Positions 4,404-24,550 of a stretch of DNA of 64,000 nucleotides are shown one piece after another. The notes beneath the pieces are model-generated. The model saw only the letters and a list, made by a program, of their open reading frames with translations, had not been told where the DNA came from and ran no database searches. A program made the position numbers and the translations under genes. Numbering within the stretch: position 1 is the stretch's first letter; the number at the start of each line of letters is the position of its first letter. The stretch is from Candidatus Eiseniibacteriota bacterium. Its GTDB lineage: Bacteria; Eisenbacteria; RBG-16-71-46; CAIMUX01; VGJL01. The stretch spans positions 192,001 to 256,000 of the forward strand of contig CAWBWI010000006.1 in assembly GCA_963792585.1 (NCBI GenBank). Reading direction: 5' to 3'.

Positions 4404-5543
4404 TCAGGCCCCACCCTCGGTGAGCGCCATCCGTCGCAGCCACCGGTAGTGAGATGCCACACCCGTCCAGAAGGTCCGGTGCTCCGCATAGCGGATGCCG
4501 TAGTCGCGACAGGTCGATTCGACGACCTTCGAGAGCTCGGGGTAGTGGATGTGGCAGATTCGAGGGAAGAGATGGTGCTCGACCTGGTAGTTGAGGCCGC
4601 CGAGGAACCAGGTGGCGAGTTTGCTCCCCCGCGCGAAGTCGACGGTCGTCTCGACCTGGTGGACGGCCCACGCCTTCTCCATCTCGGTCGTCCCTTCTCT
4701 CGGGAGTGGGAAGTCCGCTTCCTCGACGCAGTGAGCAATCTGAAAGACCACGGCGAGGATGATCCCCATCACGATGGCAACCACGCCATAGAACAGGAGC
4801 ACGGTCCAAATCGGATGGACGAGCACGGGGATTCCGATCATCAACGTGAAGAAGACAAGCTTGCCCGCAATGAAGGTCGCGAGCTCTCCGCCCTTCGGGC
4901 GAGGAAACCGGTGCGCCTGGATCTTGCCGACGATCACATCGCGAAAATCGCTGATGAGATGCCACTGCACGACCATGAAGCCGTAGATCGGCCATAGGTA
5001 GTAGTGCTGCCACCGGTGGAACGGGAGCTTCTTGCTCGCGGGCGCCATGCGACCCAGGAGGCCCACATCGATGTCCGTGTCGAGACCCGCGACGTTCGTG
5101 TACGTGTGGTGGAAGGTCGTGTGTCTTCCCCGGTAGAGGTACGAACTGCCGCCGATGAGGTCCAGCGTCATCGCCGCCAGCCGGTTGATCCACGGGCGGT
5201 CCGAGTAGGCCCGATGTCCGCCATCGTGCTGGATCCCGAGCCCGATGCCCGCCGTCGCGAGCCCGAGCATGATCGCCGTGGGAATGGCCTGCCACCAGGT
5301 GCGGACGACGAAGACGAGCAGGATGTAGAGGGCCGCGAAACTCGCCAGGAGGACGGCGCTCTTCAAGTACATCTGCCAGCAGTCCCGGCGGGACTTCCCG
5401 GTCCGATCGAAATAGCCGTCCACGCGTCGCCGGAGTTCGGCCTGAAATGCGTTGTCCCGCTGGTACTTCACCCGGTCCCCCGTATCCGCCACGGGGCGTA
5501 TCTGTGCGTTCATCAGTTTATGCGAAGCTCCTACGTTGCTCAT
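4404..5543 (-). CDS. Membrane fatty acid (acyl-CoA/acyl-lipid) desaturase
   Basis: Three His boxes (HDGGH, HTTFHHTYTN, QVEHHLFP) with hydrophobic segments; SD GAGGT before the ATG. Confidence 0.92.
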   Translation of the reverse strand: MSNVGASHKLMNAQIRPVADTGDRVKYQRDNAFQAELRRRVDGYFDRTGKSRRDCWQMYLKSAVLLASFAALYILLVFVVRTWWQAIPTAIMLGLATAGIGLGIQHDGGHRAYSDRPWINRLAAMTLDLIGGSSYLYRGRHTTFHHTYTNVAGLDTDIDVGLLGRMAPASKKLPFHRWQHYYLWPIYGFMVVQWHLISDFRDVIVGKIQAHRFPRPKGGELATFIAGKLVFFTLMIGIPVLVHPIWTVLLFYGVVAIVMGIILAVVFQIAHCVEEADFPLPREGTTEMEKAWAVHQVETTVDFARGSKLATWFLGGLNYQVEHHLFPRICHIHYPELSKVVESTCRDYGIRYAEHRTFWTGVASHYRWLRRMALTEGGA

Positions 5544-6321
5544 TGCACCTCAACACTTTCGATTCTGAAGAGAATATGCCCATCGAGAGTGCCCTTCAGG
5601 GGGTTGCCTCTCGACGTCGTCCCTCGAAATCGCCTCTCCAAGCCGCCCTCAGATTCGCCCTTCGAGTCCGCCCCTAGAGTTCGATACTAGCCGCCCCTGA
5701 CCGGGAAATCCGCCAGGGAACGCCCCGGAAAGATAGGGACAAAGTCGTATTGACGAAGGTGATTCCATAAGGGCAAAGCGGGCGGCGTCAGGAGTCGACA
5801 GGATGTCTCGTTCCCACAAGGGAACCCTCCCGACCAGGGCCTTGGTAGGTTCGGCCCAGCGCCTGATCGGCCCAGAACATCTTCTGATCAAGATACATAA
5901 GACTGCGCTCGAATTCCAGCGGAGGCGTGGCATGAGTCGCGGTAACTGACCTATGAATAACAGGTTACCGATAACAGCAACAAGAACGATTTGAGTTGCA
6001 CCTCCTGACATTCCGGCCGTAAGATGCTTGGTCACGATCCAAGCGGATCGTCCTCGATCCTCGAGCGTGATCGGCATGCTAGAGGCGACGAGGCTGCCTC
6101 CAACGAGGGGACCCGATGCGCAGAGTCATCCAGATCTCATGGGAACGGCTCCCGTTCACCTGAGTGCGTTGCCAATCGCGGCAGCGTGACTGCGCCTCGT
6201 TGAACCTCTAGCCCCCACATCGCGCCCCTTCGGTTCACTTCGCGCCACCCTGCCGCTCTCTTCGCCGGGTCCGCCGAAGTCATGAAACCTAAGACCTAAC
6301 CAAAGGGGAGACGAAACCGTC

Positions 6322-7344
6322 ATGAACAGAGCATGGATACTGTTGCTACCGCTGGTTCTCATGGGGGTGCCCATTCGCGCGCTCGCCGGCGGCTGTGGCT
6401 GAGTGCCCGTCTCGCTCCCCGTTGGGGAGCAGATCACGACCCACATCCCCGGTACGCTCCGGGCCGGCTACGGATTCGCCTATTCGGATACCGATCACTA
6501 CTACATCGGCGAGGAGCGCGATGCACCGACCGAGACGAATGTGGCGCCGGCCACTCTCGGCATCGAGCACATCCTCGGCCTCGAGTACGATCTGGCGCGG
6601 AAGTTCACCCTCGTCAGCGAGATCCCCTTCGTCCATACCGAGCAGAGCCGCAAGTTCGGCGGGGTTGCGGGGACCATGAAGGCAAGCGGGCTCGGCGACG
6701 TCCGCCTGCTTGCCCGTTACTGGATCTCCGACCAGAATCCCGGGCTTCGCTGGTATACCGCGATGGGGGTGCGCCTGCCGACCGGCGACTCGGACGGCAC
6801 GTTCCGCGCGAAGAACGGAATGCTCGTGACCAAGGACCTGGCCGCCCAGGCGGGGACCGGGAACCCGGCCGGGATCGTGGAGATCGGCGGCGGCGCCATG
6901 CTCGGCGATCGTATCGGCCTCGGCTTCTCGGCCCGGTACATCTTCACTCCGGATGCGACAACGGTGAACAATTTCCGCAACGAGTTGACGGGCAACGGCC
7001 CGAAGATGAACTCGGATTCGGACGCGGCAACGGCCCGTGTCAGGTTCAGTTCACCCCTGAGCATGGGGGACGGGGCCCTTTCCCGCGTGGCCGCCAGCGT
7101 CATCGCCGACGTGGCTTGGGTTCCCAACGACGATCTGATTGGTGAGACAGAAGGCTTCCGTCGTGCAGGGCCGATCGTCCTCCTAGGCCCCGGGCTCAGC
7201 TGGGCGCCACGCCAGGCCTTCGCCGTGTCGGCCGCCGTGCCGGTCGCGGTCTACAGGAACGTCCAGGAGAACGGGGGCAACGTGCAGGAGTGGATGCTCC
7301 AGCTTTCGCTCTCGTACAACATCCTGAATGGAGCAAGTCGGTAG
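6322..7344 (+). CDS. Candidate selenoprotein: exported outer-membrane beta-barrel ('transporter'/SphA/MetA-pathway-like) with N-terminal C-G-U motif
   Basis: SD AAAGGGGAG (6302-6310), then ATG 6322, signal peptide MNRAWILLLPLVLMGVPIRALA and GGCG-UGA(6400-6402), in frame with ORF 6403..7344. The body has GLGDVRL..Y and G.RLPTG motifs and alternating beta-strands ending LQLSLSY. A SECIS-like hairpin follows the UGA. Confidence 0.8.
6412..6433 (+). promoter_or_regulatory. SECIS-like hairpin of the candidate selenoprotein barrel
   Basis: 7-bp stem GCTCCCC-GTT-GGGGAGC (6414-6430) starts 11 nt after the UGA, with TC/GA lower pairs and a bulged A6431. It has the same TC-GCTCC...GGAGC-A-G frame as the selD hairpin. 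Confidence 0.7.
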
Positions 7345-23560: not shown

Positions 23561-24550
23561 CTACAGGCTCCCCAGCAGTTCCTCGTTCGTCTTGAATCGC
23601 TGAAGGAGACCAAGTAGGCCGCTCATCGCCTCGTCGACCTTCTTGCCGGCAAGGACGCGTCGCAGCATGTGGAGTCGCGGGAGCAGATCGGGCCGGACGA
23701 GCTTTTCTTCCTTGCGGCTGCCGCTCTTGGCGATATCGATGCAGGGGAAGATGCGCTTCTCGAATAGGTCGCGCGAGAGGACGAGCTCGGTGTTTCCCGT
23801 CCCCTTGAATTCCTGAAAGATCACCTCGTCCATCCGCGAGCCGGTGTCGACGAGCGCCGTGCCGAGGATCGTGAGGCTCCCGCCCCCTTCGATCTTGCGG
23901 GCCGCGCCGAAGGTCTGCCGCGGGCGCTGCATGGTCGATGCGTCGAGTCCGCCGCTCAGGGTGCGTCCGGATCCCTCGAGAACGTTGTTGTAACCGCGCG
24001 CGAGACGGGTGATCGAGTCGAGGAGCAACAGCACGTCCTCCCCCACCACCACCCGCTCGAGAACCACGGCCATCGCCTCCTCGGCCTTCTCGATGTGCTC
24101 CTGCGCCGAGAGATCGGACGAGGCCGCGTAAACCGTCGCCTTCACGCCCCGCCGGAAGTGGGTCACTTCCTCCGGCCGCTCGTCGACGAGCAAGACATAG
24201 ACGGCCATCTCCGGGTGGTTCTTCTCGACGGAGTTGGCGACGTCCATGAGAAAGGTCGTCTTGCCCGCCTTGGGAGGGGCGACGATCATGCAGCGCTGAC
24301 CCTTTCCGATGGGGGCGATCAAATCGAAAGCCCGCATGGATATTCCGTCGGGGGTCGTCTCGAGAACGATCCGCTCGTAGGGATCCACGCTGGTCCCCTG
24401 CTGCAGTTCCCGGAACAGGCCGTCGAGCACGTCGCGCCGCGAGCGGGCCTGTCCACCACCGCGACGATCACGGTGGTGCTGGGGAGACCCGGCGTGGGAG
24501 CCCGAGCGATTGTGTGGGGGGCGTCTGCGGGGAGGCCGTCCATCAGGCAT
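23561..24550 (-). CDS. rho: Rho-family ATPase (transcription termination factor Rho paralog) lacking the N-terminal RNA-binding domain
   Basis: [82 protein letters not shown]. Only about 50 low-complexity residues precede the ATPase core. Confidence 0.88.

Follow-up and report, generated by a model that had tools for sequence, protein, structure and literature searches.

Channels of the COG4313 class (PF13557), which include Pput2725, SphA and TcpY, are small plugged barrels of the outer membrane, characterized by hydrophobic-solute uptake with lateral exit. According to PMC4493636, the N-terminal 14 residues of Pput2725 occupy its lumen from the periplasmic side. Two outer-membrane selenoprotein groups appear in Table 1 of PMC13188914, namely the GSU2204 family (MtrB/PioB-like, NF041027) and the FCYXU TonB-dependent receptor (NF049945). 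According to the same 2026 review, a high-affinity transport system specific for selenium has yet to be identified in prokaryotes. The mechanism proposed below has precedents in the accessible portions of three papers, which connect the porin ExtI with selenite reduction (PMC5877670), YeeE and the TusA-like YeeD with thiosulfate (PMC11073785), and CruR with a putative Cu importer regulated through a uORF and Rho (PMC12360218).

Here, we analyzed a 64,000-nt stretch of a Candidatus Eiseniibacteriota genome (G000), referred to as the window, and unless a contig or locus is named all coordinates are those of the window. One of its genes very probably represents a selenoprotein subfamily among the COG4313-fold channels that appears to be uncatalogued. 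It would add a selenoprotein family in a class, the small plugged outer-membrane channels, that is absent from the PMC13188914 catalogue. A channel with a Sec tip and a UGA leader upstream makes a candidate selenium-uptake pore that can be tested directly, and the same type of locus offers a second unlisted Sec/Cys pair, in a MetE-like protein, and a possible ribosome-based selenium sensor.

The barrel gene and its in-frame UGA

The plain ORF track begins the barrel gene at GTG 6403, directly after a TGA, and gene callers begin there as well. As the original prediction had proposed, a Shine-Dalgarno sequence (AAAGGGGAG, 6302..6310, plus strand) and ATG 6322 open the same frame through this TGA. 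Read-through gives a 340-aa predicted outer-membrane selenoprotein (6322..7344, plus strand) with the Cys25 codon at 6394-6396, TGA 6400-6402 as codon 27 and a TAG stop at 7342-7344. Residues 1-22 (6322..6387, plus strand) form a predicted signal peptide, which was called by eye and from hydropathy (9-residue mean up to 3.1, with A-L-A as the A-x-A motif before G23) and is alike in 18 of 18 full-length close homologues. The mature protein would begin G-G-C-G-U (6388..6402, plus strand), where C25 is the invariant Cys of the superfamily and U27 the Sec/Cys position. The neighbours of the barrel gene are a fatty-acid desaturase gene on one side and, on the other, a large gene on the opposite strand that is presumably glycosyltransferase-like.

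An assembly or sequencing error at the TGA was ruled out, as contigs from four of four runs covered 6310-6500 unbroken and left 6400-6402 unchanged; three of these runs were from other strains, which differed elsewhere but not at the TGA, and the fourth may have been the source of this DNA. Contigs from RNA libraries also span the gene, which has no bearing on its transcription. Reassignment of UGA was likewise ruled out, since tRNA-Sec is the sole tRNA with a UCA anticodon and TGA is used more often than any other stop codon (837 of 1683).

The hairpin predicted to start after an 11-nt spacer was found at 6414..6430 (plus strand), with a 7-bp stem and a GTT loop. It stands directly 3′ of the UGA and has a G early in the loop, both of which mark a SECIS by our own stem/loop geometry, used here in place of bSECISearch. 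Each of the five TGA loci keeps 6-7 pairs in the stem, whereas the three Cys loci are left with 4-5 interrupted pairs, so that the element is intact in 5/5 of the former and broken in 3/3 of the latter. In this genome, a stem of at least 7 bp with the same geometry follows 17 of the 837 confident ORFs ending in TGA and 1.1% of 20,000 random TGAs, and is also found in selD and the MetE-like gene. The genome holds selA, selB and tRNA-Sec, on which the prediction depended, with selA and selB scoring over their cut-offs. The selD gene (43-45 and 121-1041, start just before the window) carries its own in-frame TGA at 43-45, as claimed, and is itself a selenoprotein gene; the outer stem letters of its SECIS are common to the barrel SECIS. 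Further candidate Sec codons of this genome are followed by the same GTN-triloop stems as the barrel SECIS (contig C6 near 972719, 968110, 900851 and 742343 and C3 1081711, minus strand; C1 1644338 and 627565, plus strand). We take these codons to lie in peroxiredoxin-like and thioredoxin-like motifs, and the C6 candidates include four paralogous U-x-x-C or U-x-x-x-C proteins.

A homologue search in which 7999 candidates were scored yielded 45 proteins. Eighteen spanned the full length and carried Cys at both positions after the signal peptide (17 with G-C-G-C and one with A-C-G-C), another 17 began at, or two residues past, the position right after codon 27, and 10 were partial or more distant. 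The peptide encoded under the SECIS was V-S-L-P-V-G-E in 15 of the 17 truncated proteins compared to 1 of 17 Cys proteins, although the kin in these counts are not independent. Eleven of 206 genomes in a phylum set matched, and the eight of these with close barrel copies come from two related families. Codon 27 was TGA in five (G000, G019, G013, G017 and G008), whose proteins are 62-72% identical to the G000 barrel, and TGC or TGT in three (G010, G007 and G009). As anticipated, close homologues keep the upstream signal peptide and have Cys or TGA, and no other residue, at codon 27. The selA gene scored over its cut-off in seven of the eight genomes, and G019 (75% complete, with TGA) gave a weak selA match only. 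Two metagenome contigs, one of them near-identical to G010, also carry a close barrel, and a plasmid search returned two distant matches with uninformative neighbours. In a quick tree of 44 rows, with the N-terminus left out and most Sec-type labels inferred from truncation, Sec-type and Cys-type proteins interleaved. Five label changes were needed, at least three of them forced by well supported branches, and thus residue 27 has switched between Sec and Cys repeatedly.

Because the in-frame UGA aligns with Cys and a stem-loop follows on its 3′ side, it is highly probable that the barrel gene encodes Sec at residue 27. The family would have been overlooked because gene callers cut the barrel at the UGA.

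Barrel fold, plug and wider superfamily

An AlphaFold2 model of the mature chain, built from a 136-row alignment, had a mean pLDDT of 93.5, with residues 1-6 below 50, and predicted a 12-stranded beta-barrel over residues 46-335 of the protein (6457..7326, plus strand). The top structural match was the COG4313 channel Pput2725 (4RL8; Z 24.1, rmsd 2.7, 259 aligned). Model residues 9-312 superposed on 4RL8 chain residues 1-268, and a Foldseek search with the first model agreed. The N-terminal segment that fills the lumen (model residues 9-23) superposed on the plug of 4RL8, starting at residue 1 of the latter. This supports the originally predicted SphA/COG4313-like fold and its N-terminal plug, while the proposed lumen position of C25 and U27 falls at pLDDT below 50. 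As the Pput2725 plug fills the lumen, the C-G-U tip would extend that plug, at an exact place that we infer.

A sequence profile searched against solved structures gave FapF as the best match (E 4e-15), and a Pfam and NCBIfam scan assigned no family to the barrel query. For PF13557 (gathering cut-off 22) the query gave no hit, the relative P0004 scored 20.7 bits and the distant P0046 28.9 bits. Polar or charged residues (D126, D234 and R280) make up most of the positions that are invariant across the wider family, and D172, Q176, D271 and R281 are nearly invariant.

At an E cut-off of 0.001, a profile search returned 638 representatives, the best 150 of which were taken and 148 examined. Within this best-scoring set, 68 of the 148 relatives had a signal peptide followed by a Q-G-C-type Cys, which aligned with C25 in 63 of the 63 rows filled in that column. 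Many other relatives among the matches listed start 0-10 residues past the first Cys, and in 10 clusters looked up, the truncated ones include Planctomycetota and Vicinamibacteria records. Most superfamily members have the first Cys only, or Sec in place of it. At the DNA level, two distant barrels on the minus strand (L044:7236-8320 in G008 and L045:6924-7990 in G124) have Q-G-TGA at the first Cys position and a G-loop hairpin. Judged by sequence, the Q-G-TGA barrels are a second predicted Sec subtype of the same superfamily, so that Sec would sit at mature position 3 there and at position 5 in the G-C-G-U barrel studied here. G008 holds three barrel types, G-C-G-U, Q-G-U and Q-G-C.

C-terminal fusions were found in four distant relatives, three with thioredoxin/TlpA-like domains (P0096, P0190 and P0192) and one with a double HMA domain (P0153); all 15 listed cluster members of the latter lack a signal peptide, and 14 of them are 524 aa long. 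Remote barrels that are common in the phylum (L087-L107) have C-G-x-E-x-C-P, Q-G-C-C or D-H-P immediately behind the signal peptide, which suggests that ligand motifs at the N-terminus are general in this barrel class.

The upstream UGA leader and the linked operon

Upstream of the barrel gene lies a 15-codon leader ORF (6116..6163, plus strand), preceded by an SD-like GAGGGG (6105..6110, plus strand) and ending R-L-P-F-T-UGA. Its UGA is at 6161-6163, and read-through in the window would stop at TAG 6209-6211. The consensus C-terminus is R-x-P-F-T-UGA, and the distance from start codon to UGA is exactly 15 codons at each of the 10 aligned loci, with no indels. Third codon positions vary more (0.46) than first and second positions (0.26 and 0.23). 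Five different codons encode the invariant Arg. Fixed length, lack of indels and synonymous variation were tested for here and found, and they point indirectly to a translated leader. All 11 sites, which are kin and not independent, use UGA as the stop, compared to 837 of 1683 stops genome-wide; the peptide after this UGA is unconserved and 4 to 22 codons long.

The leader UGA is followed by a conserved bulged hairpin (6178..6195, plus strand), which is a candidate SECIS of the leader. In the alignment 59 of 60 cells are paired and five of six pairs invariant; no compensatory change occurs across the 10 loci, hence there is no covariation support. The hairpin is shorter than the typical SECIS of this genome, and its loop starts CG(T)G(A/T), as do those of the hairpins that follow the two Q-G-U codons and the MetE-like UGA. 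Downstream lies a C-rich, G-poor tract (6196..6289, plus strand), which from its C-G skew is a candidate Rho-loading site. The skew is positive in 10 of 10 loci and at least 0.3 in six of them, a level reached by 1.1% of random 90-mers. The genome has a rho gene, and another Rho-like gene, shorter and scoring under the family cut-off, lies at C6:215564-216400 (about 23564-24400 of the window, minus strand).

The leader precedes the barrel in all eight genomes, Cys versions included. A leader pattern matched 11 sites in eight of the 206 genomes, nine before a barrel and two before a detached operon (G007 and G009), with no other site in the 206 genomes and no control hits. The pattern was built from the known loci, so that its matches are largely by construction and its absence elsewhere is the informative part. 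Likewise, a covariance model of the leader run on 151 genomes recovered just the 11 known sites (76-96 bits), and neither the following 22 hits (at most 28 bits) nor two extra regions held a UGA-plus-hairpin leader; therefore, no wider regulon could be read. The leader is kept before the stand-alone Cys barrels of G007 and G009, where no downstream UGA needs protection, which suggests that it tracks the function of the barrel and not its synthesis.

Rfam gave nothing relevant over 5540-6500, no intrinsic terminator was found in the leader region, and no sigma-70-like promoter was found. An anti-SD switch in the minimum-energy fold of the window was rejected, as it failed across loci. With a ribosome at the UGA, accessibility of the ribosome-binding site was higher in three of 10 loci, lower in one and unchanged in six. 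A structural switch at this site was thus unsupported. The leader likely ties barrel production to selenium supply.

In G019, G017, G008 and G010 the barrel lies directly upstream of TusA-like, DsrE-like, TusA-OsmC and, where the contig reaches, MetE-like genes. The same arrangement was seen on the two metagenome contigs, and in G013 the contig ends within the first TusA codons after the barrel, which makes five of eight genomes linked when G013 is counted. In G000, G007 and G009 the four-gene operon lies away from the barrel (G000 C5:181652-179139, L053), and the detached G000 operon is without the leader; further loci covered for the operon were L037-L040 and L046-L052. The MetE-like gene matched 21 of 206 genomes, with F-M-U and a hairpin in eight loci and F-M-C in 12; the G009 copy has a TGA and a frameshift. 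With the queries used, neither barrel nor leader was found in G006, which has the operon with a Sec MetE-like gene, and no barrel was found in G012, which has a Sec MetE-like gene. Cys-form MetE-like genes beside an OsmC-like gene, without TusA or DsrE, occur at L071-L078 (genome families f15, f17 and f18), and the other neighbours there, judged by eye, we take to be acyl-CoA-dehydrogenase-like and phosphonate-binding-like genes. No metal-resistance or metal-transport gene was recognized among the neighbours of the close family.

Proposed function and comparison with known systems

The original prediction had left the choice between a metal-binding, chalcogen-binding and redox-gated porin, and the gene context together with the UGA leader tilts this choice towards the handling of selenium or sulfur. 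We propose, at an even chance, that the Sec channel admits a selenium (or sulfur) solute, captures it on the Cys/Sec plug and is regulated by selenium through the UGA leader. First, SelB and tRNA-Sec would decode UGA27 through the SECIS, which we hold with high confidence. The signal peptide would be cleaved after A22, and the chain is predicted to fold as a 12-stranded COG4313-type barrel with its N-terminal segment in the lumen. The Cys-Gly-Sec tip of the plug could then capture the solute transiently, in a covalent or coordinated adduct, before its release to the periplasm, in a region of the lumen presumably lined with conserved Arg, Asp, Asn and His, the tip being modelled at pLDDT below 50. 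In the cytoplasm, as the gene linkage suggests, the TusA, DsrE and TusA-OsmC carriers and the Sec MetE-like enzyme would process the solute. Sec insertion at the leader UGA would decide whether transcription survives the C-rich, probably Rho-dependent stretch. We lean slightly towards expression of the barrel when Sec runs short rather than when it is plentiful, because of attenuator logic and the CruR precedent in the available part of PMC12360218. A selenoprotein induced by selenium shortage is partly paradoxical, which counts against the mechanism, as does the judgement, in the accessible part of PMC4493636, that Pput2725 is unlikely to pass hydrophilic molecules. In addition, the G000 barrel is not beside the operon, and the operon there has no leader. 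A more specific version is tentative and, on balance, doubtful. The barrel would be a dedicated selenium-uptake pore with a Cys-Gly-Sec plug, made only when the UGA/SECIS leader reports on Sec and feeding a TusA/DsrE/OsmC relay and the Sec MetE-like enzyme, as one branch of a widespread and systematically truncated superfamily of Sec-tipped barrels.

The HMA and thioredoxin-like fusions and the Cys/His-rich N-termini of relatives may point instead to metals or redox chemistry. It is unlikely, though conceivable, that the ligand of the C-G-U tip is a soft metal or metalloid (Cu(I), Hg, As or Zn), for example for the supply or protection of a Zn-dependent MetE-like enzyme. The two HMA domains of the distant relative P0153 and the C-G-x-E-x-C, C-C or D-H starts of remote relatives would fit such a role, and about 70% of predicted selenoprotein ligand interactions involve metals according to the available part of PMC13188914. 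However, the recurring neighbours of the close family are sulfur-carrier families, with no metal gene recognized, and a UGA leader suits selenium control better than metal control. A C25-U27 selenenylsulfide that gates or stabilizes the plug as a redox switch is rather improbable. Its solute would be organic and unrelated to selenium, and the leader would sense it in the manner of TnaC, with the UGA as a plain stop. The thioredoxin/TlpA-like fusions of the three distant relatives are in line with this, as is the unconserved peptide after the leader UGA, and the accessible parts of two papers link COG4313 channels to hydrophobic solutes (PMC4493636) and describe stalling leaders with Rho sites (PMC12360218), which the R-x-P ending of the leader here recalls. 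In contrast, a Cys/Sec pair is dispensable in a superfamily where most members have the first Cys alone or Sec there, and UGA is the stop in every leader, kin though these are, and is followed by a conserved G-loop hairpin. The selenium- or sulfur-solute channel under a UGA leader therefore ranks over both.

It is very improbable that UGA27 acts as a genuine stop or is decoded as Cys or Trp, with the gene being a remnant or giving a signal-less product from GTG 6403. The GTG directly after the TGA, chosen as start by gene callers, is what speaks for it. Against it stand the TGA at the same codon in five genomes at 62-72% identity, with signal peptide and SECIS conserved, the interleaving of Sec-type and Cys-type proteins on the tree, and the single UCA-anticodon tRNA, tRNA-Sec, in a genome where TGA is the commonest stop.

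Neither the channel nor the MetE-like protein has a counterpart in the catalogues searched. Among 119 prokaryotic selenoprotein families (2026, PMC13188914 Table 1) there is no PF13557-type or MetE-like entry, and NCBIfam holds no selenoprotein model for the MetE-like gene. NCBIfam 20.0 gave no hit near a cut-off, either for the barrel query or for the barrel portion of 30 homologues, and no such family is named in the available parts of PMC9312934, PMC12013277 and PMC13326102. A full-text literature search, whose coverage mostly excludes subscription papers, found no description of this channel, and a targeted one found none of a bacterial Sec-decoding leader.

Compared to Pput2725, SphA and TcpY, the barrel has 12% identity and conserved polar motifs of its own. 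Its plug is about eight residues longer than that of Pput2725 and is tipped by Cys-Gly-Sec/Cys, whereas the word cysteine is absent from the main text of the Pput2725 paper (PMC4493636). The amyloid secretion channel FapF (5O65 and 5O67) is alike in fold (Z 21.0, rmsd 3.5, 253 aligned), but against the NCBIfam FapF model (cut-off 700) distant relatives scored 27 bits or less and close ones gave no hit, and no amyloid operon was seen. The GSU2204 family and the FCYXU receptor are likewise predicted exported beta-barrels with one Sec, but of other barrel classes; the barrel query scored 14 bits against NF041027 (cut-off 350) and had no listed hit to NF049945. The likeness to YeeE/YeeD and ExtI is a functional reading, not homology, and lies in a transporter for a chalcogen solute next to TusA-like or rhodanese carriers. 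YeeE, for which Sec forms are listed, is an inner-membrane protein, unlike the outer-membrane barrel here. ExtI is described, in the accessible part of PMC5877670, with one Cys and a weak likeness to phosphate porins.

The leader resembles the uORF/Rho attenuators tnaC, speFL and cruR, as far as the available part of PMC12360218 describes them, in its short length, an R-x-P-like C-terminus, a C-rich tract and a transporter gene downstream, and amino-acid leader attenuators of the hisL type are also comparable. Unlike in all of these, the candidate sensor codon here is a UGA with a SECIS-like hairpin.
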